From positions 65,276 to 129,275 of the forward strand of contig PYJD01000040.1 in the NCBI GenBank assembly GCA_003635315.1: 64,000 nucleotides of DNA, given 5' to 3'. Under the pieces are notes generated by a model. The model did not search any database. It saw nothing but the letters and a program-made list of their open reading frames with translations, and had not been told where the DNA came from. The stretch is from Candidatus Poribacteria bacterium (GTDB taxonomy: Bacteria > Poribacteria > WGA-4E > WGA-3G). Within the stretch, counting starts at the first letter, position 1, and each line of letters starts with the position of its first letter. Both the position numbers and the translations under genes were made by a program. Of the stretch, positions 3,570 to 64,000 are shown in pieces.

Positions 3570-4540
3570 CTGTCACCTCAATTTTAGTATAGTCGCTGTT
3601 AGGTCTGTCCCCATCTATGTTTACAGCCAATTTACGAATTTCTGTAAAAAAAATAAAAAAGTTCTCATGATAGTTTTCTTAACACTTTATTTCCTTATAA
3701 TGATGTGTGAGATTAACATTTGTATATCTGTGTATATTTTTTAATCATATTGGTTTGTATTCTATTTAGTATTAGTATTCGTATAATATTTATTCTCTAT
3801 ATGTTATTGTAACGTATATTTACTCTTGTGTCAATCTCTTTTCGTATATGTGATGTCTGTATTTTAAAATTCTTCAATTTATTTTTTAAAACTACGAAGA
3901 AATTATAACGTCAATCTTTAGAAGGATTATTTTCGTAGAATCTGCATGAGTATTCTATAATCCTAACGCATCACTGCCAACACACTCTTCTCAGCGTCAG
4001 AATAGGGCGGTGGTGCGTCTCAGATCTTACCATAGGCGTCAATTCACGGATTCTTCAATCATATTTGTGTGATTTATACTCCTCTTGTAGGGAATCAACG
4101 CAGCATGCACCTATGGCATGCTGCGGGTAGAGGAACGGAACCCGCCACCCCAAAAATCAACACTAAACAAAACCACTCACCAAACACCACCCCCTCTTTT
4201 CCGCGTTGTCTACAAAATCCGCAATTCAGAAAACAAACAAAAAACCTGATACATAAATAAAAAATAAATTGAACAAAACCCAACCACAAACAACTAAATA
4301 ACATAAGACGAATAAATTCAGCAAATTTACTTGTCAAAATCATATTATATACGTACAATATATATTAACGATTGTTTATTTTAAGTTGATCAGGTTCGTA
4401 GGGTGAGGGTCCCTCGCCCGTTGTTTCAATATATAGCAATGGGCAAGATAAAAGCATCACCAAATATCTGATTTATGAGATATGTTAAACTTAAAAATCA
4501 TAACCTTAAATAAGAAAGAAATAATAAGAGAATTAATGAT

Positions 4541-4942
4541 GACTACCTATAAAAACGATCCTAAATACCACAACTATCTTTATGTCAAAAAATCAACTAT
4601 AATACGTAGGTTGAAATTGTCAAAATTCACAAGGACAACAAAAACACAAAATCACACTTTTTGCAAATTCTTAAAAATCTATTTCAAAGTGGAGTAAAGT
4701 CAGTCTATGACAGAGGTTAGAGGGGTAATTAACACCAATTTCAATGACACAGAATGTGTCAAAAAGTGTAACTTTTTTCACTTTTTCAGCACTTTTTCAC
4801 CACATGGAAAAATCCAACAATTTCACAATTTTTCATTGGGGAATTTAGGATTAAAAGTCTGTTTTTGCACCTTATTAGGTTGACCGTATATTAGGATTAA
4901 AAGTTATATTTACGACTATTAGTTCTAATACAATTTTTTAAC
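4541..4942 (+). repeat. long copy 1 of a roughly 400-nt noncoding repeat family (about 80-85% identical to 46244..46633)
   Basis: Nucleotide-level conservation in blocks (for example a roughly 100-nt block at about 4843-4940 that is about 95% identical) with indels that break any common reading frame. It begins with a conserved RBS and ATGATGACTAyCTAyAAAAACGATCCTAAATAC. It contains core motif 4743..4772. Confidence 0.75.
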
Positions 4943-5039
4943 ATAAAGACTTGTATTTTAATTTGGTTTTATGAGTATAACATGTTATTATTTTAACTAT
5001 AAAAACAAGATTTTATTATAACATTTTTGGAGGTATTTT

Positions 5040-35143: not shown

Positions 35144-35539
35144 TAATAGACCTCCAAGATACCATTGTAGATTGAAAGAAATTACTAATTAAAATATTAG
35201 TAGGGTAAATAAACATCATAGAGAATATACGAAAATAAAAAATATAAAGACATTGAATATAGACATTAATATTAAACTATGTATAGTATATTCCCTCTAA
35301 TAAGTATACAAAACTAAATGTTCTAAGTCAACAATCATAGGAAAGTCATACGAATTCACTGGACAATTGAACCCTTCTTTCGGAAAATTATTGCTGTTGA
35401 CGTATACTAATACATCAGATATAATTTAATTAGCATGTATTTTATGCATTATGTGCATAATTTGAAATGTCTACTTTCACAATATACTTCATGTCTTACA
35501 TGCATTCAATATTACAAAATTCATACCGGTGGGTCGAAA

Positions 35540-36967
35540 ATGAATCTTCAGAAAAACGTTCTAATTGTTGATGCTGATATACGTCAACGAGAAGTAATCT
35601 GCCAAACATTAGACGGTGAAGGACTAAACCTGATCGTCACTGGTAATATGTACCAAGCTTTCCATCAAATTGAACACATGAAGATGGATATCTTGATCGC
35701 GCCATTAAAGGCAGAACGTATTGACGGATTTGCTCTATTGGAGGCTGGAACTCGACACCATCCTGATGCAGGTATTATTTTTATTACAGCACCAAACGTG
35801 TTAGAAACAGATACTGGAATTCGAGCCATGCTTTCCCATGAAGGTACATACTTTATTCCAAAACCTATAAATCCCACACATTTAAGAGTACTTCTAAATA
35901 AAACTCTTCAAAATCAAAGACTTACCTTTGAAAACCGGCAGTTACGATCGCAGATAGATGAAAAGGAAGGTCTATGCAGACTCACGGGAAATTCTCCACA
36001 ACTGATACAGATTCGGGAATTAATTACACAGATTGCCCCTACGAAGGCAACCGTCATGATTTATGGTGCTCGTGGTACAGGTAAAGAATTAGTGGCGCGG
36101 GCAATACATCATAGAAGTTTACGACAAGGAGCATTAATTGCGTTTAATTGTGCCACTTTAAATGAGAATTTGGCTGAATCAGAACTCTTCGGACATGAAC
36201 GAGGAGCTTTTAGTGGGGCATATAACCAACGAAAAGGTAGGTTCGAACTCGCACACGGTGGAACTCTTTTCCTTGATGAAGTTTCACAACTAAGTCTCTC
36301 TAATCAATCCCGATTATTACGGGTGTTAGAAGAACGCGAATTTGAACGGGTTGGTGGTAGTAAAACTATACAGGTGAATGTACGTATTATTTGTGCTACC
36401 AATCATGATTTAGAAGCCGCTTGTTCAAAAAGAGAATTCTTACCTGATCTATATGATCGACTGAATGTTGTTTCTGTTAATCTACCAGAACTCCAACAAC
36501 GAATTGAAGACATTCCATTATTGGTTAAAGATTTCCTTGAGGAATTTAGTCGGGAAAATAATAAAACTTTGAGAACTCTTACACCAGAAGCAGTTCGATC
36601 CCTAATGAAATACGACTGGCCAGGAAATGTACGGGAATTAAAGAATTGTATTGAAGGACTGGTTGTTATGTCTACACAAGAAACATTACAATTGACCGAT
36701 TTGCCGGAACGGATATTAAAGGCTTCAGGAGGAATAGATTCAACTATTTCCTATGCCCCTACTTTACACCAGAACCAATCAATAGAGAATGAATCACAAC
36801 AATTTGATGTTTCTATCGGGATGACTTTGGAAGAAATAAATAAAGAAGTATTACGGGCTACATTAGAATATACTGATAACAATAAAGCAAAAGCTGCAAA
36901 AATACTCGATATTAGTAGACGGACTATACAACGAAAATCAAAGGAATACGGTCTATGTGATGATTAA
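35540..36967 (+). CDS. sigma-54-dependent response regulator (NtrC family: REC + AAA+ sigma-54 activator + Fis-type HTH)
   Basis: About 475 aa from '[13 protein letters not shown]'. It has Walker A 'GARGTGKE', the GAFTGA-region variant 'ERGAFSGA', 'ESELFGHE' and a C-terminal '[17 protein letters not shown]' HTH. Confidence 0.85.
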
Positions 36968-39715: not shown

Positions 39716-40501
39716 TTAGTCTCTATTGGACTTTATCTGCCCCCAAGATGTTGCCAGTTTATCCGTAGGTTCTACAGGAAGAAGATCTCCGTCCATAACA
39801 CTTTGTACTTCATCAGCATCAAGTGCTCTGTCATATACATATAGATCGTCAATATAGAATGTAGCTGCTCTATAGCCTGTTTTACCAATGTATAGTTTTT
39901 CAGCTCCTTGTGCATGCTTGGCAGGAACACCTATCTTCAATTGTTCTTCACCATTAATATAAAAGTGTAAAGTACCATCTTTCTTAATACCTGCAACATG
40001 GTACCACTGTTTCAATTCAAATAAACTACCTTCACCGGTTGGACCAGCACAACCTGTTCCTTGGTTTCCAGGATTGAAACGCCAATGTATATTTAATGAA
40101 TTTGGACAGATCCAGATCCCAGGTGATCTATCTGAACCAGGAGCTTTTTTCGCAATTATTTGACTCCAGGCACCGTTGTGCGCAGAAATGAAGTTTAACC
40201 AAAATAGGTAACTATTATCTTGATAATCTTCCAATTCTTTGAATGAATTTACCTGGACATCCGCATTGGCATCTCGAATTTCAAGTGAGCCTTTACCATA
40301 TTTTTTCTCACCAGTTGATATATCAGCATTCCCAACTATATTCGCATGGTTTCCACCGCCAGTTTCATCTTCGATTTTTCCTCCATCCTCTCTATCAAAA
40401 CCGAAGTATAAGATCAAACCCTGATCTTTAACCGCAGCAGGTGATGTCTGAATTGCCACAAATAGTAACAGTATTAATAGTGTATATATTGTATATTTCA
40501 T
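39716..40501 (-). CDS. secreted LamG-like (Laminin_G_3 / concanavalin-A-like lectin) domain protein, paralog 1, with C-terminal LATTWG tail
   Basis: 261 aa with a signal peptide. It has 'LILYFGFDREDGGKIEDETGGGNHA' and 'DDLYVYDRALDADEV', which are LamG jellyroll signatures. The C-terminus is 'LLPVEPTDKLATSWGQIKSNRD'. Confidence 0.75.
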   Translation of the reverse strand: MKYTIYTLLILLLFVAIQTSPAAVKDQGLILYFGFDREDGGKIEDETGGGNHANIVGNADISTGEKKYGKGSLEIRDANADVQVNSFKELEDYQDNSYLFWLNFISAHNGAWSQIIAKKAPGSDRSPGIWICPNSLNIHWRFNPGNQGTGCAGPTGEGSLFELKQWYHVAGIKKDGTLHFYINGEEQLKIGVPAKHAQGAEKLYIGKTGYRAATFYIDDLYVYDRALDADEVQSVMDGDLLPVEPTDKLATSWGQIKSNRD

Positions 40502-40630
40502 TTCATTCCTCCGTAGTCAGATTAAACCATTTCAGTATTGATTAAATATCCTATATTAGGTATAAAGTAAGTAAAAATGATAATAAATATAGGGACAGTA
40601 CATAATCTGTCCCTATATTATAGATTGTAA

Positions 40631-41449
40631 TTAATCTCTACTTGTCTTGACCTGTCCCCAAGTTGTTGTAAGTTTAGCTTGAGGTTGGACAGGAAGTAGA
40701 TCACCATCCATCACACTTGCCACTTCACCCTCATCAAGGGCACGGTCATATACATAAAGATCATCGAGAATAAACTTTGCTGAGTTATATCCCGTTCTTC
40801 CAATGTATAACCGCTCATTGCCTTGGGCATGGTCGGCGGGAACATTGTTTTGCTGCGTCCGTTTACCATTTACATAGAATGATATCTGACTACCTTTTTT
40901 CGAACCAGCGATATGATACCATTCACCTATCTCAAAAACAGAATCCTCACCAGTAGGACCTGCACAATGGGGACCTTGGTTACCCGGGTTAAATCGCCAA
41001 TGGATATGAAGAGGTATACGGCTACATGTCCATATACCTGGTGATCGATCTGAACCTGGAGCCTTCTTTGCAATGATCTGATCCCAACCCCCAGAGTTTG
41101 CTTTTGTGAAATTAACCCAAAAAAGGAATGTATTATCCTGATAGTCTTCTAATTCATTAAATGAATCTACCGTTACGCTTGAGGTATTTGAATCGCATAA
41201 TAACGCACCTTTGCCGTGCACAACATCATCAGTGACAATTTTCGCATCAGCAACAATTGTCGCATCATTTCCACTACCAGTTTCATCAATGATCTTACCA
41301 CCACTCTCTTTGTCAAAACTGAAGTAGAGGATTAAACCGTCGTCTTTAACAGCCGCACTTGCAGTGTGTAGCCCACCTATAAATAGGAATAGGACTGACA
41401 AATATACCAGTAATTTCATTTTTACCTCCGTGATTGAGTTATGCTCCAA
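40631..41449 (-). CDS. secreted LamG-like domain protein, paralog 2, with C-terminal LATTWG tail
   Basis: 272 aa (possibly starting at the internal MKLLV). The conserved core 'QIIAKKAPGSDRSPGIWTC...HIHWRFNPGNQGPHCAGPTGE' is shared with paralogs 1 and 3. The C-terminus is 'LLPVQPQAKLTTTWGQVKTSRD'. Confidence 0.75.
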   Translation of the reverse strand: MEHNSITEVKMKLLVYLSVLFLFIGGLHTASAAVKDDGLILYFSFDKESGGKIIDETGSGNDATIVADAKIVTDDVVHGKGALLCDSNTSSVTVDSFNELEDYQDNTFLFWVNFTKANSGGWDQIIAKKAPGSDRSPGIWTCSRIPLHIHWRFNPGNQGPHCAGPTGEDSVFEIGEWYHIAGSKKGSQISFYVNGKRTQQNNVPADHAQGNERLYIGRTGYNSAKFILDDLYVYDRALDEGEVASVMDGDLLPVQPQAKLTTTWGQVKTSRD

Positions 41450-41768
41450 TTTATTATCACTATAAAGAACAATTTTATAGTATCATTATACTATATTAGA
41501 GTAGTTTAAATGTCAAGAAAAAACAGGTTTATTTAGTTTTCTAAATTTCCAATACATTTTATCTATTCCGTTATTGTTTATATTGGTATCTTATATAGGT
41601 CTTTAGTTCCATCGGGACGGAATGTTTATAGAATAAATGCAAACCACCTCTCTTGAGATCCGACAAATGCCATATGGAGAATCTCGATTGCAGATTATAG
41701 TAGAGTGAATAAATAATGAGACATTTCAACTTTTTGCGAAGAACGTCCAGCGTAGGGGCGAGGTGACC

Positions 41769-41791
41769 TCGCCTATTCTAAAATGTTCCAT
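41769..41791. repeat. GC-rich palindromic motif CGTAGGGGCGAGGT-G-ACCTCGCC (one of three CGTAGGGG(C/T)GAGG copies)
   Basis: It is a perfect 8-bp inverted repeat GGCGAGGT/ACCTCGCC in the divergent LamG2/LamG3 intergenic region. Related copies lie at 41847-41860 and 4397-4420. Confidence 0.5.
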
Positions 41792-42238
41792 TAATTCAAA
41801 AAATTACTATAAATAAATATTTCGCTAATCCAGACCATAAAAACATCGTAGGGGCGAGGTTTCCCAACCCGTATATTACCGAAAATCTAAATAACCGATG
41901 AATTTTAAAACTAAATAACCTTCAAGAAAAACCGTTGATTGGAATTTTTATGTATGTATTACTTATTTTATTTTGTGGAGGATTACATGGTTATCTATTG
42001 GGAGAAATTGAATCTGAAAACGGTTGCATGAATTAGTTATTTTATTTATGATTTTAACTTGACAGATTTAATCCTATCTTGTAAAATTGTTTTAATTATA
42101 TGAAAAGTGTGTTTTCTTTAATCCTGAAGAAAATATACAGAATCCTAATAAATGCAACTGGTTCTCAGGATCGTATAAACAAGCTTTTCTCACCAAACAA
42201 AATAGTAGTTATTGTATATCATGAGGAGGAATTAACTC

Positions 42239-43018
42239 ATGCGTTTTTTCATTTATCTTTTTGTTGCTACACTCTTCTGTGTTGGCACTGTTCTCTCCAC
42301 AGAAGCTGCATTGGATGATAATCTCGCACTTTACTTCAGTTTTGATAAGGACATTGATGGTACAGTTTATGATGGAACTGGAAACGGAAATCACGGTACG
42401 CTGAATCTGGCAACTATTAATGCTGATGATAAAAAAGTCGGATTAGCATCATTAGAAATAAAAGATGCAAATGCCGTTGTCGAAGTTGAATCGTTTTTTG
42501 ACTTAGAAGTATACCAAGACAACAGTTTTGTTTTTTGGCTTAACTTTATCGCTGCTCATAATGGTGCTTGGAGTCAGATTTTTGCTAAAAAAGCTCCAGG
42601 GTCTGACCGTTCTCCAGGGGTCTGGATCTGTCCCAACTCTCTAAATATCCATTATAGATTTAATCCAGGTAACCGAGGTACAGGTTGTGTTGGTCCAGGA
42701 GGCGAGGGTCAATTATTTGAAACAAATAAATGGTATCATATTGCTGGTGTCAAAGAGAGTGGTAAATTTAGATTCTACATAGATGGTGCTCAAATTGAAG
42801 AACACGATGTACCGTCTCCACATGCTCAAGGTCCTGAAAAACTTTATATCGGGAAAACAGGCTATCGATCCGCTACTTTCCTCATGGATGACTTTTTCCT
42901 TTTCACAAGAGCAATTTCTGCCGATGAAGTCAATGCCATTAAGAATGGGCAACTCATTGCTGTTGAACCTGAGGATAAATTAACCACTACATGGGGTATC
43001 ATCAAAGACAAACAGTAG
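42239..43018 (+). CDS. secreted LamG-like domain protein, paralog 3, with C-terminal LATTWG tail
   Basis: 259 aa with a signal peptide and the RBS 'gaggagg'. It has the same conserved core and Cys pair (WICPNS…GCVGP). The C-terminus is 'LIAVEPEDKLTTTWGIIKDKQ'. Confidence 0.75.
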   Translation: MRFFIYLFVATLFCVGTVLSTEAALDDNLALYFSFDKDIDGTVYDGTGNGNHGTLNLATINADDKKVGLASLEIKDANAVVEVESFFDLEVYQDNSFVFWLNFIAAHNGAWSQIFAKKAPGSDRSPGVWICPNSLNIHYRFNPGNRGTGCVGPGGEGQLFETNKWYHIAGVKESGKFRFYIDGAQIEEHDVPSPHAQGPEKLYIGKTGYRSATFLMDDFFLFTRAISADEVNAIKNGQLIAVEPEDKLTTTWGIIKDKQ

Positions 43019-49387: not shown

Positions 49388-50440
49388 CTATCCGCAAACT
49401 GCTTCAAATACACGAAGATGATTACCACCCATCACCTTCTGTATTTCCTCATCAGAATAACCACGATCAATTAAACCTTCTGTGATTTTTGGATATTCCG
49501 TAGCATCCTTAAGTAGATCCCCACCACCATCAAAATCCGATCCGATCCCAACATGATCTATTCCAGCTACATCAATAGCATATTCAACATGATTCAACAG
49601 TTTAGCAAAAGGTGGAGGATTACGCCATCCATCCTCAGTTATGAAACCAGAGACAAAGGTAATCCCGACTACACCGTCATTCGCTGTAATTGCTTTTAGT
49701 TGTTCATTTGTTAAATTTCGAGGATGGTTGCACAACGTTTTACAATTGCTATGCGAAGCGATAATCGGCTTAGAGGAAATATCCAGTACATCCCAAAATC
49801 CACGTTCACTTATATGTGAAACATCCACAAGTATACCCAGAGAGTTCATCTCATTAACTAACGCAATTCCAAATTTCGTTAATCCACCACCAGTTTCTCC
49901 TTCATCAATACCGGTTGACACCCAAGTATTAGGATTATGGGTCAAGCCAATTGACCGAACACCCAGACAATAAAGTGAACGTAATATGTTCAAACTACGT
50001 TCTACTCCCTCACTATTCTCAATAGCTAAGATACATGCTAACTTGCCTGCTGATTTAGCAGCACGTATATCTGTACCAGTTCTTGCAATACAGATATCGG
50101 ATGGGTTGTTTTCTACCTGCATATCAAACCATCCAAAAGCGTCCAATGCATATGAAAGATGGTTTTTCCAGGCACGGGTCACATCAACTGCAAAGAAGGC
50201 AGCATCAATTCCACCTTGACGCATTTTGGGAATATTCAGCTGAATCCCAATTGCATCTTCTTCTGGTGGAACTTTTCCTCGTAAATATGCAATTGTCCCA
50301 TTATATGCTTTATCGCTCTTTGTATATTCGTCATTAAGGCTGATATTACCGCGTCGAATATGCGCCACAATGGAGTCATTATGTGAATCTATAACAAGAG
50401 ATTGACTATGAAGATCGTTATTTGATGTTGTATCTGCCAT
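49388..50440 (-). CDS. membrane dipeptidase (peptidase M19 / renal-dipeptidase family)
   Basis: 350 aa with 'LVIDSHNDS', 'VDVSHISE' and 'VGIGSDFDG' metal-ligand motifs of M19. Confidence 0.8.
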   Translation of the reverse strand: MADTTSNNDLHSQSLVIDSHNDSIVAHIRRGNISLNDEYTKSDKAYNGTIAYLRGKVPPEEDAIGIQLNIPKMRQGGIDAAFFAVDVTRAWKNHLSYALDAFGWFDMQVENNPSDICIARTGTDIRAAKSAGKLACILAIENSEGVERSLNILRSLYCLGVRSIGLTHNPNTWVSTGIDEGETGGGLTKFGIALVNEMNSLGILVDVSHISERGFWDVLDISSKPIIASHSNCKTLCNHPRNLTNEQLKAITANDGVVGITFVSGFITEDGWRNPPPFAKLLNHVEYAIDVAGIDHVGIGSDFDGGGDLLKDATEYPKITEGLIDRGYSDEEIQKVMGGNHLRVFEAVCG

Positions 50441-50657: not shown

Positions 50658-51008
50658 CTACAAATCAATGCAATATATCTGCCGTGTGTTTTCATGAATG
50701 GAGTCAAATGTAATTGTTTTTCCATCTGTTGACCATCTTGGATGTAAATCACACCGAATATCTCCTGTAAATTGCTTATCTTGTTGGAATTTCCCAAGAA
50801 AGACTTTCCGATTTTCAGTTATGTTGTATAACATTAATTCGGTATACCTTTCTGTTCCTCTCGGATAGGTGTGAAAATCAGTTTCTAAAGCAAGATGGTA
50901 TTCTCCATTACTATCCCAAGGGTTGATACCGTAATAACCAAAGAAATGATGGTTAGGTGGGTTAGTCAATCTACTAATATTTGAACTGATTATGGTATCT
51001 TCATTCAT
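50658..51008 (-). CDS. short PD40/TolB-like beta-propeller-blade protein (possible gene fragment)
   Basis: 116 aa. 'DLHPRWSTDGKTITFDS...RQIYCIDL' is a single PD40-type blade. It is too short for a complete propeller. Confidence 0.35.
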   Translation of the reverse strand: MNEDTIISSNISRLTNPPNHHFFGYYGINPWDSNGEYHLALETDFHTYPRGTERYTELMLYNITENRKVFLGKFQQDKQFTGDIRCDLHPRWSTDGKTITFDSIHENTRQIYCIDL

Positions 51009-53728: not shown

Positions 53729-54316
53729 TTAGTGATCCTGAAAAAGATGATGTTCATTAATATAATTAACGACAACTTCGGGGATAAGATATCTTACAGA
53801 GAGTTTTTTTCTTATTCGATTACGAATCTCTGTTGCAGAAATGTCTGATCCAGTGATTCTAAATATCGTAATTTGATTACGGATTTCTAATGGAACTTGC
53901 TCCAAATCGTAATTGGGACGGGTCGTTACAACCAAAGTACACAGTTTTAACACATCGTCAAAGTCTTTCCAGATTTTGTATTCAATTAATGAATCTGCCC
54001 CGATGATCCAAGCAAGGTCAGTTATCTCTTTTAAAGTTTGACGTAACACCTTAATTGTCTGAATTGTGTAAGATGGACCGTTTCGATCAAGTTCGATTCG
54101 GGATACATCAAAATAAGGATTCTGAGCAGTTGCTAACTTAACCATCTGATACCTATGTTCCGCTGACACCATATCGGGTTGTGATTTATGCGGAGGACGG
54201 GCAGCTGGAACAAAAAGTATTTTGTCGTAATTTAAACCTTCCCTTACCTGTTCGGCACTTATCAAGTGTGCATAATGAATTGGATTAAAAGTGCCTCCCA
54301 TAACTGCAATTTTCAT
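53729..54316 (-). CDS. nadD: nicotinate-nucleotide adenylyltransferase
   Basis: 195 aa. The N-terminal 'KIAVMGGTFNPIHYAHL' is the (H/T)xGH nucleotidyltransferase motif of NadD. Confidence 0.9.
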   Translation of the reverse strand: MKIAVMGGTFNPIHYAHLISAEQVREGLNYDKILFVPAARPPHKSQPDMVSAEHRYQMVKLATAQNPYFDVSRIELDRNGPSYTIQTIKVLRQTLKEITDLAWIIGADSLIEYKIWKDFDDVLKLCTLVVTTRPNYDLEQVPLEIRNQITIFRITGSDISATEIRNRIRKKLSVRYLIPEVVVNYINEHHLFQDH

Positions 54317-54583
54317 TTATTCTGTTCACAATAATTCCGGTAGACATATAGACTTCGTAGGTCTTGGTCGTCTGTTGAACCGTTTAAATATTATAAAATA
54401 GACACTATCTTTCTTGATCAAGAGTATACCAATTAATTGTATATATTTCAATATAATTAGGTCTCTCATTGATCTCAATTTAATTAGAGATATTTTAGAT
54501 CTTATACCATTTAGAAATGAAAAGTTTTCAAAATTTCACATGTTATATTTTATATGGTTTTACTTATATATTGACTTTAGGAA

Positions 54584-54599
54584 AGGCAATTCGGTTGCA
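54584..54599 (+). promoter_or_regulatory. sigma-54-type -24/-12 promoter-like element P2 (aGGCAa-N5-TTGCA)
   Basis: 'AGGCAattcggTTGCA' has correct GG/GC spacing and a perfect -12 TTGCA. It lies about 80 nt upstream of P1. Confidence 0.35.
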
Positions 54600-54665
54600 C
54601 AAATAAATTCATAAGTTAAGCTAAATAACTGCGAAAAAATACAATTGTAATAACGCAACATTTTA

Positions 54666-54681
54666 TGGCACAATTATTGCA
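54666..54681 (+). promoter_or_regulatory. sigma-54-dependent promoter P1 of rsmH/dcw cluster (TGGCAC-N5-TTGCA, perfect consensus)
   Basis: 'TGGCACaattaTTGCA' matches the sigma-54 consensus at all fixed positions with canonical spacing. The predicted TSS is about 54692, 15 nt before the rsmH ATG (54707) and including its RBS. Confidence 0.55.
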
Positions 54682-54706
54682 TAAATATTATAGAGGAAGC
54701 ATAGAA

Positions 54707-55660
54707 ATGTCACTGGACCATGTACCTGTTTTGTCAAATGAAATCCTTAATTATCTAAATCCTAAACATGTAGGGATTATTGTTGATACAACGGTTGGGT
54801 TAGGTGGACACAGCCAAAATATTCTTAAACATTTTGATTCCATTAATCGTTTAATTGGAATAGACATAGATAAATCAGCCATTGCTATCGCCAAAGAAAA
54901 GTTATATGAGTATAAAGATAAAATATACTTAGTTCATGATAACTTTGCAAATCTTATTAATATATTAGAAAAAATTGGCATATATAAGGTGGATAGCGTC
55001 TTGATGGATTTAGGTGTATCCTCATTACAGCTGGATACCCCATATAGAGGATTTAGTTTTCAAGCATCTGGTGATTTGGATATGCGTATGGATGCTGGCA
55101 TAGGTAATTCTGCTGCGGATATAATTAATGACTTTCCACCTGAAGAACTTCTAAGTATTTTTGAGGAATTTGGTGAAGAAAGGCATTCGAAACGGATTGT
55201 TAGAGAAATCATCTCAACACGGAAACAAGAAAGAATAACAAACACATTACAACTTGCGAGCATTGTTGAAAAAGCATATCCCAACAAAAAAAGTCCAAGG
55301 AGTAGGTCTAATAATCGACGTATTCATCCTGCAACCCGCATCTTTCAAGCATTACGAATTGTAGTAAATAAAGAACTTGATAACCTAAAAGAGGGATTGG
55401 ACGCTGCAGTCTCTCTAATCAATCCCGGTGGGTGTCTATGTATAATTAGCTTTCATTCACTGGAAGATAGAATTGTTAAAAGAAGGTTTCAAACACTAAG
55501 TAAAAATTGCATTTGTCCTCCAAAGACACCTATATGTATCTGTAATCATAAAAAAGAACTGAATATTATAACAAAACGTCCTGTTATTCCTTCTGTCTAT
55601 GAAATAGAAAATAACCCACGGGCAAGAAGTGCCAAACTACGGGTTGCAACTAAGGTATGA
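54707..55660 (+). CDS. rsmH: 16S rRNA (cytosine1402-N4)-methyltransferase
   Basis: About 317 aa from 'MSLDHVPVL'. It has 'VDTTVGLGGHS' and the 'MDLGVSS' RsmH/MraW motifs. It is the first gene of the dcw cluster. Confidence 0.9.
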   Translation: MSLDHVPVLSNEILNYLNPKHVGIIVDTTVGLGGHSQNILKHFDSINRLIGIDIDKSAIAIAKEKLYEYKDKIYLVHDNFANLINILEKIGIYKVDSVLMDLGVSSLQLDTPYRGFSFQASGDLDMRMDAGIGNSAADIINDFPPEELLSIFEEFGEERHSKRIVREIISTRKQERITNTLQLASIVEKAYPNKKSPRSRSNNRRIHPATRIFQALRIVVNKELDNLKEGLDAAVSLINPGGCLCIISFHSLEDRIVKRRFQTLSKNCICPPKTPICICNHKKELNIITKRPVIPSVYEIENNPRARSAKLRVATKV

Positions 55661-55737: not shown

Positions 55738-56079
55738 ATGCGTGATTCAAAATTATTCTCAAAACTATTGACAGAAGAAGAAAATTCTCAGCCGAAAGTT
55801 GCAATGTTTTTTGTATACTTAGTGTTAGGTTTATCCCTATGTGTATTCGGGGCAAGTATATGGTTTTCGTCATATCAGAAGAGAGTTTATCTTAGAATTA
55901 GTCCAGCTTTTGATACGCAACAGAGTAAGATTCAGCATGAAATACATAAGCTTCTTCTGGATGAAAACAAATTAACTGATGTTGAGAGAATTCGAAAAAT
56001 CTCAATTGAACTTGGACTTGTGGAATATACAGGATCAATCGTTGAATTACAAGACAGGAAAATCACTAACAGACAATGA
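55738..56079 (+). CDS. ftsL: FtsL-like cell-division protein (single TM + coiled coil)
   Basis: 113 aa with a single TM helix and a C-terminal coiled-coil-like segment. It overlaps ftsI by 4 nt and lies between rsmH and ftsI. Confidence 0.6.
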   Translation: MRDSKLFSKLLTEEENSQPKVAMFFVYLVLGLSLCVFGASIWFSSYQKRVYLRISPAFDTQQSKIQHEIHKLLLDENKLTDVERIRKISIELGLVEYTGSIVELQDRKITNRQ

Positions 56080-57992
56080 ATCATATTACTAAACTCTCAA
56101 TACGCAGGCTTGTTTTAATCCTAATTTGTCTACAATTAGGTTTTATCGCCCTTCTTACGAAATTATATATACTACAAAATACTGATTCAGAAGGAAGAAC
56201 AGCCTCTCGAATTGATTGGCGTACAAGAAGAAACCGTGTCATAAAACGAGGTAAAATCCTTGATCGACATGGTACTGTATTAGGGATCAGTCAAGATAGG
56301 TTATCTGTTGCTGCCGATCCAAAGACTCTCAATAGAAAATCGAATGCATATACTGTAGCAACGCAATTATCCCCAATCTTAGATACTCCTAAAACAGAAC
56401 TTCTATCCTTGTTAAAAAAGAAAAAGAATGATAAGTATGTTGAATTTGTCTGGTTGAAAAAAGGGATAGACTTTGAGAAATTAGACGAAATTCGGGCAAT
56501 TACCAAAAGACATAGAGGTCTTAAGATAGAAGTTGATCCAAAAAGGGTTTACCCGAAAAAGCAACTGGCATCCCAAGTAATAGGTTATCTTAATGATTTA
56601 GATATTGGTGAGGGAGTCGAATTCCAATATCATAAATACCTTGCGAAGCTTGAACCCAATATTCAAAGAAGTCATAATCAGAATGACTCTACCCCTTCAA
56701 ACCAAACCGCAAACATAAGTCTTGGAAACACTGGAAGTAATGTTGTGCTTACAATAGACGAATTTATCCAGAGTGTCACAGAAAAAGAACTTGCTCAAGG
56801 TTGTAAGGAGTGGAATGCATCAAAAGGTACAGCTATTGTATTGTCTGTTCCTACTTCAGAGATCTTAGCTATGGCAAGTTACCCTTCTTATGATCTAAAT
56901 GATCAGAGCAATGCTGATGAAGAAGCCAAACGAAATCTCGGTATATGGTATATGTTCGAACCAGGTTCAATCTTTAAAATCGTTGCTTCTTCTGCCGTGT
57001 TAAATGAAGGAATAATGACTCATGAATCAACAGTTTTCTGTGAGTATGGTCGTTACCGTCTGCCTAACCGAAGAGCCATAAAGGATGTATCAGGAAAAGG
57101 ACACTTGTCTCTTACGGAAGTCTTACATAAGTCAAGTAACATTGGAATGATAAAAATTGTTGAAAGGTTAGGTCCTGAATTATTTAGAGATTATACGGAA
57201 GACTTTGGATTTGGTAAAAAAACAGGTGTTGATCTCCCCTATGAAAAGAACGGTAATCTGTATTCACTACGTAAATGGGATGTGAATTCTTTAGCATCTG
57301 TCCCCTTTGGTCAAGGTATTTCAGTTACACCTTTACAGATGGTTAATGCCCTTACGGTCATTGCAAATGGTGGTATCTTACGAAGACCTTATATTACCAA
57401 GGAGATTCGAGATGATCATGGTAAACTTGTGAAGATGAACTATCCCACAGAAATACGTAGAGTTTTACGACCTGAAATTGCTAAGTTAATGACAAATATC
57501 CTTGTAGGAGTCGTAGAGAATGGAAGTGGAAGACGCGCAAGAATTGAAGGTGTAAATGTTGCTGGTAAAACCGGAACTGCTCAGAAAGCTGAAAGGGGTA
57601 AAGGGTATTCTGCTGGTAAAGAGGTTATGTCATTTATGGGTTTTCTACCCGCAGAAGATCCTAAAATTGCAATCATCGTCACACTTGATGAACCTTCTGG
57701 GGCAAGATTTAGCGGTACGATTGCTGCACCAATATTCAAAAATATTGCAGCCGAAACTATAAAATATATTCAACAGACCGCATTCTTCGATTCAATTCCA
57801 AATACAAGGTATGTTAAGAATAATCTTAATGCAAAACAAACAACGCAAGCTTCTACTACACCATCAACCAATTTAGATAGATCTCAATCATTTAATACAA
57901 CAATATCACCATCTAATAAACCCGTACAGTCTTTATCACAAAAACAAGACGCCTCCGACTATAGTCTACGTAAGAATGGAGAAGGTTTATGA
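56076..57992 (+). CDS. ftsI: peptidoglycan D,D-transpeptidase FtsI (class B penicillin-binding protein)
   Basis: 638 aa with an N-terminal TM anchor and the motifs SxxK 'SIFK', 'SSN' and 'KTGT'. Confidence 0.9.
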   Translation: MNHITKLSIRRLVLILICLQLGFIALLTKLYILQNTDSEGRTASRIDWRTRRNRVIKRGKILDRHGTVLGISQDRLSVAADPKTLNRKSNAYTVATQLSPILDTPKTELLSLLKKKKNDKYVEFVWLKKGIDFEKLDEIRAITKRHRGLKIEVDPKRVYPKKQLASQVIGYLNDLDIGEGVEFQYHKYLAKLEPNIQRSHNQNDSTPSNQTANISLGNTGSNVVLTIDEFIQSVTEKELAQGCKEWNASKGTAIVLSVPTSEILAMASYPSYDLNDQSNADEEAKRNLGIWYMFEPGSIFKIVASSAVLNEGIMTHESTVFCEYGRYRLPNRRAIKDVSGKGHLSLTEVLHKSSNIGMIKIVERLGPELFRDYTEDFGFGKKTGVDLPYEKNGNLYSLRKWDVNSLASVPFGQGISVTPLQMVNALTVIANGGILRRPYITKEIRDDHGKLVKMNYPTEIRRVLRPEIAKLMTNILVGVVENGSGRRARIEGVNVAGKTGTAQKAERGKGYSAGKEVMSFMGFLPAEDPKIAIIVTLDEPSGARFSGTIAAPIFKNIAAETIKYIQQTAFFDSIPNTRYVKNNLNAKQTTQASTTPSTNLDRSQSFNTTISPSNKPVQSLSQKQDASDYSLRKNGEGL

Positions 57993-59539
57993 AGCTGCAG
58001 AATCTCCTTGATGGTGTTGAAGTTAGTGAATTGATTGGTGATTCTAATTCGGAAATAGTTGGCATCGTCAGTGATCACCGTGAAGTAAAAGAAAATTATG
58101 CATTCCTCTGTTATCAAGGATTGAATGTTGATGGACATGACTTTATACCAGGAGCGATAAAGAATGGTGCTAAAGTCATTATATCTGAAAGACCTATTCA
58201 ATCACTCCCCGCTGGTGTTACCAATGTAATTACCCCAAATGGACGGAGAGCACAAGCCATTTGTGCCGGAAATTGGTATAGAAACCCCACAAACAATTTA
58301 AAACTGATAGGTATCACCGGTACGAACGGGAAAACCTCCACAGCACATCTATCCTACAGTATTCTTAGATCACAAGGATATAAGGTCGCTGTTCTCGGCA
58401 CTGTTGGACATTCTTACGAAACACAAACATCCCCCGATAAGAAAAAACACAAAGAAAAAATTCAAATACCCGCACTCCTGACTACACCAGATGCTTTTAA
58501 ACTCAATGCAATTTTTAGGGAATTAGTTGATTCTGGTGTGGAATATGTTGTTATGGAGACTTCATCTCAAGGTCTTGCTCAACATAGATTAGCTGGATTA
58601 AGTTTCCACACCGCAGTTTTCACTAATTTCACTCAAGACCACCTTGATTACCATAATACAATGGAAGAATATCTTGATGCAAAATTGATGTTATTTGACC
58701 AATTAGAATCAGATGGAATAGCCATCCTAAATAGTGATTCTTCTGTCAAAAATCAGATTGTAGAACGGATTTCCAACCAACACATTCTTACATACGGAAT
58801 TAAGACCAAGGCAGACCTAACACCTCATGCGATAGATATTTCATTAAAAGAATTAACTTTTACTACCTTTATAACGGAAAATATTAAAAATTTACTAAAT
58901 ACCTCATGTAATCATATTCATACCAGATTACAATTACTTGGTTCTTATAATATATATAATGCTCTTGCTGCCATTGGCGTTGGACTACGTTACAACTGCA
59001 GCGAACAGGCAATTTCTGATGGACTTGCATCCACTGTTGTCCCGGGACGGTTTGAACGTGTATCAACTGCAAATGGGAATAATGAGTTTGCAGTAATTGT
59101 TGATTACGCACACACACCTGACGGATTGGAGAATGTGTTAACTGCTGCACGTGATATATCAGATGGTCGATTAATTTCTGTTTTTGGTTGTGGTGGGGAT
59201 CGAGATAAAAGTAAACGTGCAAAAATGGGTAAAATTTCTACTGATATAGCCGATTTTAGCGTTATCACTTCTGACAATCCACGCACTGAAAATCCTGATG
59301 AAATCATCTCTGACATTGTGTCAAATTTACCACATGATGCAGCATTTATCTGTATTTCTGATAGACGAAAAGCTATCCAACAAGCTATTTTAAAAGCTGA
59401 AAAGAATGATGTTGTTGTAATTGCTGGAAAGGGACATGAAGATTACCAAGAAATTAATGGACAAAGATTTCCATTTGACGATAGAAGGGTTGCATCTGAC
59501 ATACTGCAACATATTCATACCGATGATATGAATTCTTGA
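57989..59539 (+). CDS. murE: UDP-N-acetylmuramoyl-L-alanyl-D-glutamate--2,6-diaminopimelate ligase
   Basis: 516 aa with the Mur ligase P-loop 'GITGTNGKTSTAHL' and the C-terminal 'DNPRTE' region. Confidence 0.9.
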   Translation: MKLQNLLDGVEVSELIGDSNSEIVGIVSDHREVKENYAFLCYQGLNVDGHDFIPGAIKNGAKVIISERPIQSLPAGVTNVITPNGRRAQAICAGNWYRNPTNNLKLIGITGTNGKTSTAHLSYSILRSQGYKVAVLGTVGHSYETQTSPDKKKHKEKIQIPALLTTPDAFKLNAIFRELVDSGVEYVVMETSSQGLAQHRLAGLSFHTAVFTNFTQDHLDYHNTMEEYLDAKLMLFDQLESDGIAILNSDSSVKNQIVERISNQHILTYGIKTKADLTPHAIDISLKELTFTTFITENIKNLLNTSCNHIHTRLQLLGSYNIYNALAAIGVGLRYNCSEQAISDGLASTVVPGRFERVSTANGNNEFAVIVDYAHTPDGLENVLTAARDISDGRLISVFGCGGDRDKSKRAKMGKISTDIADFSVITSDNPRTENPDEIISDIVSNLPHDAAFICISDRRKAIQQAILKAEKNDVVVIAGKGHEDYQEINGQRFPFDDRRVASDILQHIHTDDMNS

Positions 59540-59612: not shown

Positions 59613-60371
59613 ATGCATTCGGTTAAGTTTATTGAGATTGACAATCTCAAAGTCGCCTACCGTGTTGGTGGATTTGGCTCACCTGTCGTACTCTTACATG
59701 GATGGGGAGCAGAATCAGGAACATTTAAAAGTGTCTTTGATCATCTATCAAGTTCACACCAAGTATATGCTCTTGATTTACCCGGCTTTGGACTTAGTGA
59801 AATACCACCTGAACCATGGAATGCAACAGATTATGCAAAATTACTTTCCAGTTTTCTTGATAAACTTAATATTGGAAAGGCTTCACTGATAGGACATTCA
59901 TACGGCGGTAGGATTTCAATTGTAATCGCCGCTAACGAACCAGAAAAAATTGAGAAGGTTATCTTAGTAAATAGTGCTGGTTTAAAACCGAAAAGAAATC
60001 TGAAATATTATTGTAAATATCTACTATCAAGATTCGGACGTGTTTTTCGAAGATTAGGGAGTTTTGGAAATAGTTTTGCTGACAGAATTGCAGATATAGT
60101 TGGATCAAGAGACTACAAAGAGGCAGGTCCAATGAGGGGAACAATGGTAAAATCAGTAAATCAGGATTTGCATCCATGCTTGTCAAAAATTAGGAATCAG
60201 ACGCTGTTGATATGGGGTGAACATGATAAGGATACACCACTATCTTCTGGAAGAATAATGGAAAAAGAGATACCAAATTCTAAACTTGTTGTATTAAAGG
60301 ATGCCGGACATTTCTCCTACTTAGATCAAACTGAACAATTTGTTCAGATGGTAAGTAATTTCTTAGATTGA
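59613..60371 (+). CDS. alpha/beta-fold hydrolase
   Basis: 252 aa with the HG oxyanion motif 'LLHGWG', the nucleophile elbow 'GHSYGG' and a C-terminal 'DAGHF'. It is inserted between murE and murF. Confidence 0.75.
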   Translation: MHSVKFIEIDNLKVAYRVGGFGSPVVLLHGWGAESGTFKSVFDHLSSSHQVYALDLPGFGLSEIPPEPWNATDYAKLLSSFLDKLNIGKASLIGHSYGGRISIVIAANEPEKIEKVILVNSAGLKPKRNLKYYCKYLLSRFGRVFRRLGSFGNSFADRIADIVGSRDYKEAGPMRGTMVKSVNQDLHPCLSKIRNQTLLIWGEHDKDTPLSSGRIMEKEIPNSKLVVLKDAGHFSYLDQTEQFVQMVSNFLD

Positions 60372-60532: not shown

Positions 60533-62155
60533 ATGGTTAACGAAATACTCTTTCTTGGTGTTTTAATTATCTGCTTTGTAAGAGCTATTATTAGAGCAAT
60601 TCAGGGATTACATATTTTACAACTTGATGGATACAAACCTGGCAGATATGCAAAATGGGTTACAAACCACATCAGCCAATGCATTGAAATCAAGGATTTA
60701 ACAATTATTGTTATATTCTCAATACCTGTAATTATATACCCTCCATTTCTTGAGGGTAATTGGATTTTTCCTGTGCTGGCAATAGTTTGGATGGTTTTCC
60801 AACTATATGCTATAACAACCCGTAAGAAGGTTGATGTTAAAAAACCTTTGGTCTATACATTCCGGGCGAAACGGTTGTTGAGTTTTGCATTATTCTTACT
60901 GTTAGGACTTAGTGTAATTTTTGCATTATTTATACAGGAAAATAGATGGCGTCTTATTGCTTTTCTATTTAGTGAGATAACAATACCAATTATGATCTTA
61001 AGTAGTTTTCTCATCTGGCCTGTTGAACAGTTCATTAACAGTTTGTATTTACGGGATGCAAGAAGACGCATTAAATCTCTGGAACCTACTGTCATAGGCA
61101 TAACTGGAAGCTATGGCAAAACAAGCACAAAATATATACTCCATCAGATTCTATCACAAAAATATAATACTTTGATGACACCTGATAGTTATAACACGCC
61201 AATGGGAATCTGCAAAGTAATTAGAGGGGATTTATTACCTGAACATGAATATTTCATCGTTGAAATGGGGGCATATAAACGTGGAGATATTAAGGTGTTG
61301 TGTGAGCTTGTGTTTCCTGAGATTGGAATTCTTACCGCCGTCGGCCCTCAGCATTTAGAAAGATTCAAGAGTATTGAAAATACCACAAAAGCAAAATATG
61401 AACTAATTCAGTCTTTACCAATGAATGGATTAGCTGTCATCAACAATGATAATAGTATTTGCGAAGATTTAGCCGAGAAAACGGACACCGTCCCTGTTAT
61501 CCGATATGGGGTTAATTCAAAGGATACAAATAGATTAACTGCAGATGATATCAAACAATCTGAAAATGGTTTGTCATTTACACTTCAAGACAATACTTCA
61601 GGAACTATAGAGATTTCAACTAAGCTTCTTGGAAAACATAACGTGTCCAATATACTTGCAGCTGTGGCAGTTGCCCAACACTGTGGTATGACATTAAATG
61701 AGATAAGTGATGCTCTTAAGGCGTTGGAACCTGTTCCTCATCGTTTGCAATTAATGGATTCAGGTACTGGTATCACTGTGATCGACGATTCCTTTAATGC
61801 CAACCCTGAAGGTGCAAGGGCTGCCCTTGAAGTATTGCGAGATTTTCTGAGTAAAGGAACTTCACAAAAAGTATTAGTTACCCCAGGGTTAGTTGAGTTA
61901 GGTGAGTTAGAATACGATGCAAATAAGAAATTTGGATCAGATGCAGCTAAGGTTTGTGATCTCGTTATCCTTGTAGGACCTGCGAGAACATTGCCTATAT
62001 TAGACGGGTTAAAAACTCAAGATTATCCTGAAGATAAAATATATGTCGCTAAGAATCTAAACGATGCACAACAACAACTTGCTTTACGCCTTTCACCTGG
62101 GGATGTCGTCCTTTTTGAAAATGACTTACCCGATAATTATAACGAATCAGTCTAA
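60533..62155 (+). CDS. murF: UDP-N-acetylmuramoyl-tripeptide--D-alanyl-D-alanine ligase MurF with N-terminal polytopic membrane extension
   Basis: 540 aa. Residues 1 to about 165 form 5 hydrophobic helices. Then come the Mur ligase P-loop 'GITGSYGKTSTKYIL' and the MurF signature 'IDDSFNANPEGA'. Confidence 0.85.
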   Translation: MVNEILFLGVLIICFVRAIIRAIQGLHILQLDGYKPGRYAKWVTNHISQCIEIKDLTIIVIFSIPVIIYPPFLEGNWIFPVLAIVWMVFQLYAITTRKKVDVKKPLVYTFRAKRLLSFALFLLLGLSVIFALFIQENRWRLIAFLFSEITIPIMILSSFLIWPVEQFINSLYLRDARRRIKSLEPTVIGITGSYGKTSTKYILHQILSQKYNTLMTPDSYNTPMGICKVIRGDLLPEHEYFIVEMGAYKRGDIKVLCELVFPEIGILTAVGPQHLERFKSIENTTKAKYELIQSLPMNGLAVINNDNSICEDLAEKTDTVPVIRYGVNSKDTNRLTADDIKQSENGLSFTLQDNTSGTIEISTKLLGKHNVSNILAAVAVAQHCGMTLNEISDALKALEPVPHRLQLMDSGTGITVIDDSFNANPEGARAALEVLRDFLSKGTSQKVLVTPGLVELGELEYDANKKFGSDAAKVCDLVILVGPARTLPILDGLKTQDYPEDKIYVAKNLNDAQQQLALRLSPGDVVLFENDLPDNYNESV

Positions 62156-62263: not shown

Positions 62264-63448
62264 ATGAATGTTGCAGTCATATTCGGTGGCAGATCTCCTG
62301 AACATGAAGTCTCCATTGTTACTGCCCATCAGCTAAAAGCTGCATTAAATGATAAGTATGAAGTAACCCTTATATATATTACAAAAGATGGTGAATGGTT
62401 GACAGGTGACAAACTTCATGAATTAAATACTTTTACCAATGGAAATTTACCTAACATATCAGATTATGATAGAGTTAGTGTTGAATTTGAAAAAAAACCA
62501 ACCTTTTATAATATTCCAAAACGTTCCGGTCTATTCAATAAAAAGAGTGTCTTAAACATTGACGTTATATTCCCCGCTATTCATGGTGTAAATGGTGAAG
62601 ATGGAACACTGCAAGGTTTATTTGAATTAATGAATATCCCTTATGTTGGTGCAGGGGTCGTAGGTTCATGTATTGGAATGGATAAAATCATTATGAAGTC
62701 AATACTGAGCGATAGTAATCTTCCTATCCTACCATATATCTGGTTCACAAAACATCAGTGGAATACCACCTCTGAAGATATTATTGATAGAATTGAAGAG
62801 AAATTAGGTTATCCAATTTTTGTAAAACCTGCTATCAGTGGATCAAGTATTGGAGTAAGTCCGGCAAGAGATCAAGAAGAACTAAGAAACGCGATTGAAC
62901 TGGCTTGTCGATATTGTCAACGAATAGTGGTTGAGGAAGGTATAGAACAAGGTTATGAAATTAACTGTTCTGTTATGGGAACACACAACCCTATCGCTTC
63001 TGTTTGTGAACAACCAATCAGTAATAGTGATTTTCTTAGTTTTGATGATAAATATATACATAATACATCCGATGATTCAGATGATGTTTCCAGGGAAGGA
63101 ATGGCAGGAGCACAAAGAAATATTCCTGCACCAATTAGCGATGACCTAACGTTACATATTCAAAACCTAGCTACTGATACATTTCAAATTCTCGACTGTT
63201 CTGGAATAGCACGAATTGATTTCATAATTACATCTGAGGACATAGTTTATGTAAATGAAATTAACACTATCCCCGGATCATTCAGTTTCTATTTATGGGA
63301 ACCATCAGAAATTACATTCCCGCAATTGTCATCGGAATTGGTTACACTGGCATTAGAAACACATAAAGAAAAAAATAAATTAATATATTCTAATACAACT
63401 AATCTATTAAGCCACGCAGGAGCAAGTTTAGGTAAGTTAAAGGATTAA
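62264..63448 (+). CDS. ddl: D-alanine--D-alanine ligase
   Basis: 394 aa. 'VAVIFGGRSPEHEVSIVTA' and 'AIHGVNGEDGTLQGLFELMNIPYVG' begin the ATP-grasp Ddl fold. Confidence 0.85.
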   Translation: MNVAVIFGGRSPEHEVSIVTAHQLKAALNDKYEVTLIYITKDGEWLTGDKLHELNTFTNGNLPNISDYDRVSVEFEKKPTFYNIPKRSGLFNKKSVLNIDVIFPAIHGVNGEDGTLQGLFELMNIPYVGAGVVGSCIGMDKIIMKSILSDSNLPILPYIWFTKHQWNTTSEDIIDRIEEKLGYPIFVKPAISGSSIGVSPARDQEELRNAIELACRYCQRIVVEEGIEQGYEINCSVMGTHNPIASVCEQPISNSDFLSFDDKYIHNTSDDSDDVSREGMAGAQRNIPAPISDDLTLHIQNLATDTFQILDCSGIARIDFIITSEDIVYVNEINTIPGSFSFYLWEPSEITFPQLSSELVTLALETHKEKNKLIYSNTTNLLSHAGASLGKLKD

Positions 63449-63530
63449 TGTAAAACAATCATATATATAAATATAAATGTATCCTATCAGTCAAATCATT
63501 ATTGCCCGTTAGTTGTACCTCTCCAATACT

Positions 63531-64000
63531 ATGCTTTATCATCTATTTATACAGACACTTGCAGATAGTTTTCCACTGTTAGATTTCTTCGGATCTATTA
63601 GTATTCGAACAGTATATGCAACTGTTACAGCATTAGGGATTTCTCTGGTTTTAGGTCCTTTTATGGTCTCAAAGTTAAAACAGTTAAATATTGGAGAACA
63701 TATACAAGAAGAGGTAAAACAAGCACAAGACAACGATAATCAAAGTAAAACCGGTACGCCTACAATGGGTGGAATACTTATCATAGTAGCCGTTCTGATT
63801 TCTGTCCTATTTTGGGCTAAGTTAAATCAGCCATACATCCTGTTGATGTTATTAACAATGCTCTGGTTTGGTGGACTCGGTTTTCTTGATGATATGCGTA
63901 AAATCAGTAAAAGGCAATCCCTTGGTCTAAGAGCATGGCAGAAAATTTTACTCCAAACTTTAGGGGCATTAGCAATTGCATTCTATCTTTTTTATTGGGG
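63531..64000 (+). CDS. mraY: phospho-N-acetylmuramoyl-pentapeptide-transferase (partial; runs off the 3' end of the window)
   Basis: The ORF starts at ATG 63531 with no stop before the window end, so it is absent from the ORF track. It has 'GTPTMGGILII' and the 'GFLDDMRKI' MraY motifs. Confidence 0.85.
   Translation, partial: MLYHLFIQTLADSFPLLDFFGSISIRTVYATVTALGISLVLGPFMVSKLKQLNIGEHIQEEVKQAQDNDNQSKTGTPTMGGILIIVAVLISVLFWAKLNQPYILLMLLTMLWFGGLGFLDDMRKISKRQSLGLRAWQKILLQTLGALAIAFYLFYW

Follow-up and report, generated by a model that had tools for sequence, protein, structure and literature searches.

A conserved −24/−12 element, predicted to act as a sigma-54 promoter, upstream of the rsmH division and cell wall gene cluster in Poribacteria

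A 64,000-nucleotide stretch of contig PYJD01000040.1 from a Candidatus Poribacteria metagenome-assembled genome (hereafter the window; G+C content 36%) contains a −24/−12 element of the sigma-54 (RpoN) type immediately upstream of rsmH, the first gene of a dcw cluster, a set of genes for cell division and the cell wall. We consider it probable (about 0.8) that this element, at positions 54666-54681, is a genuine sigma-54 promoter driving rsmH-ftsL-ftsI-murE and probably also the downstream hydrolase gene, murF, ddl and mraY. This reading is supported by the rarity of the motif, by the preservation of its position and of both its sequence blocks across the phylum with a variable spacer between them, and by its absence from 164 control loci. 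The element itself belongs to an ordinary sigma-54 promoter class; it is the target, the dcw cluster, that has not been reported before.

The −24/−12 element and its conservation

Both strands of the 64-kb window were searched for the pattern TGGCAC-N5-TTGCW. A single match without mismatches, TGGCACAATTATTGCA, was found, on the forward strand at 54666-54681. The −24 GG occupies positions 54667-54668 and the −12 GC positions 54679-54680, with a GG-to-GC spacing of 10 bp. The claim of the original prediction, which was made from the sequence without database searches, that every fixed position and the spacing are canonical was thus verified as an exact match. In dinucleotide-preserving shuffles of the window perfect matches arose 0.03 times on average, the same frequency as had been estimated beforehand, and at least one match was present in 3 of 100 shuffles.

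The rsmH ATG (54707) is located on the same strand 25 nt past the end of the motif, with the sequence GAGGAAG in between. This start is backed by a 317-aa Candidatus Poribacteria protein from NCBI that is 100% identical. An in-frame ATG at 54665, use of which would make the motif coding, was considered as the RsmH start and rejected. In relatives the distance between motif and ATG differs by +2, +4 and +6 nt; these indels break the frame, and the motif is therefore not coding. The identical NCBI protein, which begins at 54707, also contradicts the upstream start. If the GC sits at −13/−12, transcription would be expected, from the usual geometry of sigma-54 promoters, to start at about 54692 and to produce a leader of about 15 nt. 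An RNA element or structured leader was also considered and rejected: the two Rfam matches obtained were far under the gathering score (bantam, 24 bits versus 61; emrB RNA, 24 versus 61) and lay elsewhere in the spacer.

For comparison, RsmH homologues were traced to their contigs, and Poribacteria-type loci were added by scanning metagenomes for a Cys-rich peptide motif of RsmH. Exact look-ups of the RsmH of the window and of P0005 gave no record. Two loci, L123 and L152, were left out of the motif judgement since they had too little upstream sequence. Twelve sequences, the window and 11 other distinct Poribacteria-type contigs, carry the motif 23-42 nt ahead of rsmH (Table 1). RsmH identity in these contigs goes down to 52%, and in one of them, L087, an insertion sequence (IS) separates motif and gene. 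Across the 12 distinct sequences the blocks TGGCA[CT] and TTGC[AT] are invariant, the GG-to-GC distance is exactly 10 bp in every case, the spacer takes six forms and the flanks diverge. A spacer T two bases before TTGC is invariant as well, though it lies outside the search pattern. The spacers of the distant relatives (RsmH identity 52-63%) are aaatc, aattc, gtttc, ggttc and aaatt. All 12 have an A/T-rich stretch immediately before TGGCA, which reads AAAT in most diverged lineages and TTTA in the group of the window. In the close relatives conservation of the block reaches about 20 nt beyond the −24 region on the upstream side, as TTGTAATAACGnnAC.

Table 1. Poribacteria-type loci with the −24/−12 motif upstream of rsmH, in addition to the window
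Locus	RsmH identity	Motif	Identity of block 54645-54687	Identity of rest of spacer
L081	91%		98%	81%
L082	85%		95%	56%
L083	79%		93%	36%
L085	63%	TGGCATaaatcTTGCA
L086	61%	TGGCACaattcTTGCA
L138	60%	TGGCACaattcTTGCT
L087	59%	TGGCACgtttcTTGCT
L200	54%	TGGCATgtttcTTGCT
L202	54%	TGGCACaaattTTGCT
L129	52%	TGGCACggttcTTGCT
L147	52%	TGGCACgtttcTTGCT

In L129 and L200 another gene, GFO_IDH_MocA, precedes rsmH in the same orientation, only about 80 nt away, and the motif is still kept. In L087, a 4.17-Mb Poribacteria contig, the motif is intact and the IS element (3915-5001) is inserted between it and rsmH; the transposase gene (4016-4963) is on the same strand, and its product contains HTH_Tnp_4, DDE_Tnp_1 and DDE_Tnp_4 domains.

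The control set consisted of 164 rsmH loci of other phyla in which 150 nt or more upstream of the gene was available. A genome-collection scan with an RsmH alignment (generic peptide patterns) had yielded at least 80 loci; the 80 listed were all from other phyla and were used solely as negative controls. No perfect motif was found in the 200 nt upstream of rsmH in any of the 164 control loci, and a single-mismatch match was found in one; as mraZ usually precedes rsmH in these phyla, the control gauges the background rather than an equivalent promoter position. The 1.7 Mb of compared loci contained 18 perfect matches on the rsmH sense strand, 10 of which are the Poribacteria rsmH sites. Two matches from other bacteria, the only further ones within 3 kb upstream of rsmH, were examined as candidates and rejected. 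The one upstream of rsmH in L106 lies inside an open reading frame (ORF). The other, in L080, a Desulfobacteraceae metagenome-assembled genome (4416-4431, forward strand), belongs before another small ORF (4484-4849), which begins 53 nt beyond the motif; mraZ-rsmH follow on the same strand about 1 kb further on. With a footprint in 12 sequences and none in 164 controls, the proposal of a sigma-54 promoter directly before rsmH and the dcw cluster is strongly supported.

Alternative readings of the element

The best surviving alternative, which we regard as rather unlikely, accepts the sequence as a real sigma-54 site and assigns the main promoter role to something else. Basal transcription would come from an unrecognised sigma-70-type promoter or from read-through, while the site would give a conditional boost or hold a bound closed complex that modulates other transcription. 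In favour of this alternative, the cluster contains essential genes, and such genes are rarely left to an all-or-none promoter class; it also agrees with the sigma-70-like promoter of one named Poribacteria lineage (L201), with the apparent tolerance of a disrupted arrangement in L087, where the IS puts 1 kb between motif and rsmH, and with the failure to find an enhancer. Against it stands the absence of any credible forward-strand sigma-70 promoter within 350 nt of rsmH in a simple scan, the sole forward-strand match (9/12) lying 350 nt upstream beside the nadD start. Elsewhere the lineage plainly uses canonical sigma-70 promoters, as those of nadD and of the activator gene show. The spacer between rsmH and the divergent nadD upstream of it is 390 bp long, and beyond the motif and the nadD promoter it contains nothing conserved between diverged lineages. 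In L200 the whole 80-nt upstream gap contains only the −24/−12 motif.

Several observations weigh against the element being the promoter of the cluster. The predicted leader is very short, 13-32 nt across relatives. Loci L179/L121 (RsmH identity 53%) have no motif and a different upstream gene. Locus L201 (RsmH identity 57%), the named Poribacteria lineage mentioned above, also has no motif, and a near-consensus sigma-70 promoter, TTGACA-16-TATAAT (3915-3950), precedes its rsmH. Because three Poribacteria-type lineages lack the motif, the −24/−12 arrangement is, as far as these loci indicate, widespread in the phylum and not obligatory or universal. The promoter class appears to have turned over at the rsmH operon, with most lineages using sigma-54 and L201 using sigma-70. 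Spacer alignment, a search for shared k-mers with one mismatch and a search for inverted repeats failed to reveal a conserved enhancer or inverted repeat upstream of rsmH. These searches returned only A/T-rich low-complexity words and the nadD promoter, and the sole palindrome upstream of the motif (54530-54551) is not conserved in relatives. In L200 the upstream gene and rsmH are only 80 nt apart. The candidate activator described below has the contact loop GAFSGA and not the canonical GAFTGA; a T-to-S change is the one substitution at this loop position reported to keep PspF activity. Finally, a regular expression for the RpoN box gave no match in the window or in the fetched loci, the part of the genomes that this search covered. 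We infer the presence of rpoN in the host genome, for which the conserved activator with its sigma-54 interaction domain, named sigma-54-dependent by NCBI in other Poribacteria, is indirect evidence, and, likewise, which activator acts and when.

A second alternative is that the conserved block is an operator of another DNA-binding protein or a promoter of another sigma factor, with a coincidental likeness to sigma-54 promoters. We consider it very improbable. It could draw on the absence of an RpoN-box match from the window and the fetched loci, and on the upstream extension of the block in close relatives, which could be a separate protein site. It does not explain why the fully invariant positions across diverged lineages are the two sigma-54 consensus blocks and one spacer T only, or why the 10-bp spacing is constant in 12 of 12 sequences. 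The motif also lacks dyad symmetry of the kind used by dimeric repressors, and sigma-54-type activators are conserved in the phylum.

The original prediction envisaged tandem promoters, with a weaker −24/−12 element about 80 nt upstream of the main one. Such a sequence, AGGCAATTCGGTTGCA, is indeed present at 54584-54599; its promoter role did not stand. In its favour, GG and GC are canonically spaced and the −12 block reads TTGCA. It carries two mismatches. At a threshold of two or fewer mismatches the window contains 34 matches (33 with exactly two mismatches plus the perfect one) versus 21.6 ± 4.9 expected, i.e. close to chance. In L081, the closest relative, the corresponding sequence reads AGGTAATTCGGTTGAA, with the −12 GC lost; it is unrecognisable in the relatives with 85% and 79% RsmH identity and absent in all other relatives compared. 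Being at chance level and not conserved, the upstream element does not support tandem promoters, and joint control of the cluster from 54584-54599 and 54666-54681 is hardly credible. Another two-mismatch sequence with canonical GG/GC spacing, CGGCAGatataTTGCA (50669-50684, reverse strand), is located about 230 nt upstream of an M19 dipeptidase gene (49388-50440, reverse strand) and is probably a chance match.

That the perfect motif is itself a functionless chance occurrence, such as arose in 3 of 100 shuffled windows, is effectively refuted, since 11 diverged contigs carry it where the window does and none of the 164 controls has it.

One further candidate, a reverse-strand GTGCCA-16-TACAAT sequence overlapping the motif, was rejected as a promoter: it is weak (9/12), distant lineages do not conserve it, and a better conserved promoter is available to nadD 200 nt closer. 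Both hexamers of that nadD promoter are kept in all nadD-syntenic loci, with a variable spacer.

Candidate activator, proposed mechanism and known systems

An NtrC-family activator had been predicted in the window at 35540-36967, and domain analysis bore this out: the protein contains a receiver domain, a Sigma54_activat domain (E=6.6e-64) and an HTH_8 domain. Its sigma-54 contact loop departs from GAFTGA in reading GAFSGA, and all 13 orthologues compared share this sequence. The receiver domain appears to be a pseudo-receiver. In an alignment with the E. coli NtrC receiver, the phospho-acceptor Asp54 of NtrC is replaced by Pro or Gln in 13 of 13 orthologues, while Thr82 and Lys104 are kept. 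There is no kinase gene beside the activator gene, which makes the protein an orphan regulator. Homologues 73-97% identical to it were found in more than 120 clusters, several of them named in NCBI as Poribacteria sigma-54-dependent regulators. The activator shows 75-85% identity on contigs whose RsmH reaches only 53-59%, and is thus much better conserved than the RsmH encoded beside it on a contig; the contigs were paired across two match lists by equal length (138066, 5509395 and 3262878). It is plausible but unproven, on these sequence comparisons, that this protein is the activator of the rsmH promoter. Searches of literature and supplements for Poribacteria with rpoN or sigma-54 returned nothing relevant.

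In the proposed mechanism, sigma-54 RNA polymerase would bind the −24 GG and the −12 GC as a closed complex that is unable to open alone. A hexameric AAA+ enhancer-binding protein would then touch sigma-54 via its GAF(T/S)GA loop, and ATP hydrolysis would open the promoter. Transcription would begin near 54692 and proceed through a leader starting at the Shine-Dalgarno sequence into rsmH-ftsL-ftsI-murE. Since there is no mraZ and no recognisable sigma-70 promoter upstream, expression of the cluster should depend mainly on the activity of the activator. The sigma-54 arrangement would in this way stand in for the usual sigma-70 Pmra/MraZ arrangement in most sampled Poribacteria.

A stronger version can be formulated, in which the dcw operon of most Poribacteria has lost MraZ/sigma-70 control and become wholly dependent on sigma-54 and one dedicated activator, the orphan 35540-36967 protein with its pseudo-receiver and GAFSGA loop. 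We regard this version as possible but doubtful. If it were true, sigma-54 and the 35540-36967 activator would be essential, whatever signal acts on the activator ATPase would gate cell division and the synthesis of septal peptidoglycan, and the essentiality of sigma-54 in a bacterial phylum would have a concrete molecular basis.

A sigma-54 promoter gives no transcription until an activator has opened it by ATP hydrolysis; bacteria have no tighter on/off switch. Known sigma-54 regulons include nitrogen assimilation, flagella, pili, phage shock, transport and precursors of exopolysaccharide and lipopolysaccharide. Were such a switch the sole promoter of ftsL, ftsI, murE, murF, ddl and mraY, as it appears to be, and kept across a phylum without MraZ, growth and division would be licensed by a signalling protein and not, as is usual, by a constitutive housekeeping promoter. 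Many of the bacteria concerned are sponge symbionts. The immediate impact of the finding is moderate, the promoter class being ordinary and the organisms uncultured. It could offer an explanation for possible sigma-54 essentiality in some lineages, and the loci compared would show cleanly how, in nature, one orthologous operon can change its promoter class.

The classical sigma-54 promoters (glnAp2, nifH, Pu, pspA) have the same two-block TGGCAC-N5-TTGCW layout with 10 bp from GG to GC and are located directly upstream of an operon, and, as here, the genome encodes an AAA+ enhancer-binding protein. The differences are the target and the lack of an identifiable upstream enhancer in the present case. 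The Poribacteria consensus AAATTGGCACGTTTCTTGCT closely resembles the consensus of the Geobacter sulfurreducens RpoN regulon, TTGGCACGGTTTTTGCT (PMC2725144). Francke et al. (2011) tied sigma-54 to the supply of precursors for the "bacterial exterior", among them the building blocks of peptidoglycan, and the cell-division COG class was not enriched near sigma-54 promoters in their analysis (PMC3162934). The finding would extend their proposal from precursor supply to the core division and cell wall operon. No report of a −24/−12 promoter at rsmH, mraZ or the dcw cluster was found in the literature, and matches to "mraZ" in texts of sigma-54 regulon papers turned out to be the author name Mrazek. 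Together with the lack of enrichment of the cell-division class (PMC3162934), this agrees with the expectation stated at the outset that sigma-54 control of the dcw cluster would be unusual.

Control by Pmra and MraZ, known from E. coli, Bacillus and Mycoplasma, concerns the same unit, with a single promoter 5′ of rsmH(mraW)-ftsL-ftsI-murE-murF. Here, by contrast, there is no mraZ, no MraZ-type repeat operator and no sigma-70 promoter, and obligatory activation would replace repression of a constitutive promoter.

The nearest functional counterpart is found in Rhodobacter sphaeroides, where the NtrC-family regulator NtrX acts directly on the 5′ promoter of the dcw cluster, linking envelope/nitrogen-type signalling to division and peptidoglycan genes. 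To our knowledge, alphaproteobacterial NtrX has no GAFTGA loop and acts without sigma-54. Unlike in the NtrYX system, the promoter described here is of the sigma-54 type, and the candidate activator keeps GAFSGA and has neither an adjacent kinase nor a phospho-acceptor Asp. In R. sphaeroides NtrX directly activates mraZ-mraY and ddlA-ftsA, and its sites determined by ChIP-seq contain a GCA-N9-TGC repeat, with no −24/−12 element described (PMC7240162).

The rpoN gene is reported to be essential in Geobacter sulfurreducens and Myxococcus xanthus, for reasons unrelated to dcw or unknown (PMC2725144). In Caulobacter crescentus rpoN is needed for normal division, according to Brun and Shapiro (1992) as cited in PMC2725144. 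Sigma-54 is tied to essential or cell-cycle functions, not to optional stress responses, in Myxococcus, Geobacter and Caulobacter, as proposed here. The essential targets in these bacteria are unknown or metabolic (dcuB, glutamine/glutamate synthesis), and direct sigma-54 promoters at their dcw clusters are unreported.

The gene cluster and other features of the window

Coordinates of the promoter elements and genes are collected in Table 2. The cluster order, rsmH-ftsL-ftsI-murE-(alpha/beta hydrolase)-murF-ddl-mraY, is a dcw order with two atypical insertions. The ftsL/ftsI and ftsI/murE genes overlap by 4 nt each, and no convincing terminators were found in the gaps further downstream. Given these overlaps and the lack of terminators, the hydrolase gene, murF, ddl and mraY are probably transcribed together with the genes before them. 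Counts of internal terminators and promoters were at the level of shuffled sequence and are uninformative on the extent of the operon.

Table 2. Promoter elements and genes in the window (positions from the first nucleotide of the window)
Feature	Positions	Strand	Basis or remarks
NtrC-type enhancer-binding protein, candidate activator	35540-36967	+	receiver, Sigma54_activat (PF00158, E=6.6e-64), AAA lid, HTH_8 (Fis-type HTH)
Predicted promoter of the activator gene	~35398-35426	+	TTGACG-17-TATAAT, canonical sigma-70
nadD	53729-54316	−	followed by yacG, yqeK, rsfS
Predicted sigma-70-type promoter of nadD-yacG-yqeK-rsfS	54423-54451	−	promoter scan; TTGAAA-17-TATACT, extended TG (TGgTATACT)
Claimed second −24/−12 element, AGGCAattcggTTGCA	54584-54599	+	two mismatches; judged non-functional as promoter
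Conserved promoter block (about −47 to −5)	54645-54687	+	A/T-rich stretch, −24/−12 core, TAAATAT; common to close relatives
Predicted sigma-54 promoter core, TGGCACaattaTTGCA	54666-54681	+	TGGCAC (−24), spacer aatta, TTGCA (−12)
Predicted start site (~54692) and short 5′ leader with Shine-Dalgarno GAGGAAG	54688-54706	+	usual sigma-54 geometry
rsmH (16S rRNA m4C1402 methyltransferase), first cluster gene	54707-55660	+	TIGR00006, E=1.7e-108, above cutoff
ftsL-like	55738-56079	+	TIGR02209 weak, below cutoff; PF04999 weak in orthologues
ftsI-type class B penicillin-binding protein	56076-57992	+	PBP_dimer and Transpeptidase domains; FtsI/SpoVD families
murE	57989-59539	+	NF001126, E=8e-168, above cutoff
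alpha/beta-fold hydrolase, between murE and murF	59613-60371	+	Abhydrolase families
murF	60533-62155	+	TIGR01143, E=3e-76
ddl	62264-63448	+	NF002528, E=2.3e-102, above cutoff
mraY, 5′ part, runs off the window	63560-64000 (start approximate)	+	frame-2 translation with GTPTMGG and GFLDD

The mraY assignment relies on GTPTMGG and GFLDD, which we take to be motifs typical of MraY. The location of ddl directly after murF and of mraY after ddl (62264-64000, forward strand) is atypical for a dcw cluster. The alpha/beta hydrolase gene follows murE in the syntenic loci that reach that far (L082, L083, L085-L087, L200 and L202) and is absent in L201, where a second Mur ligase gene, probably murF, comes directly after murE. 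Neither the annotated ORFs of the window nor the neighbourhood of rsmH in any related locus yielded a MraZ, in line with the absence of mraZ noted in the original prediction.

Elsewhere in the window, a restriction-modification pair at 20647-23061 (forward strand) consists of an N6_N4 DNA methylase gene followed by a gene for a type II endonuclease of the TdeIII family. Three paralogues of 259-272 aa with Laminin_G_3 (concanavalin-like lectin/glucanase) domains are encoded at 39716-43018, two on the reverse and one on the forward strand.

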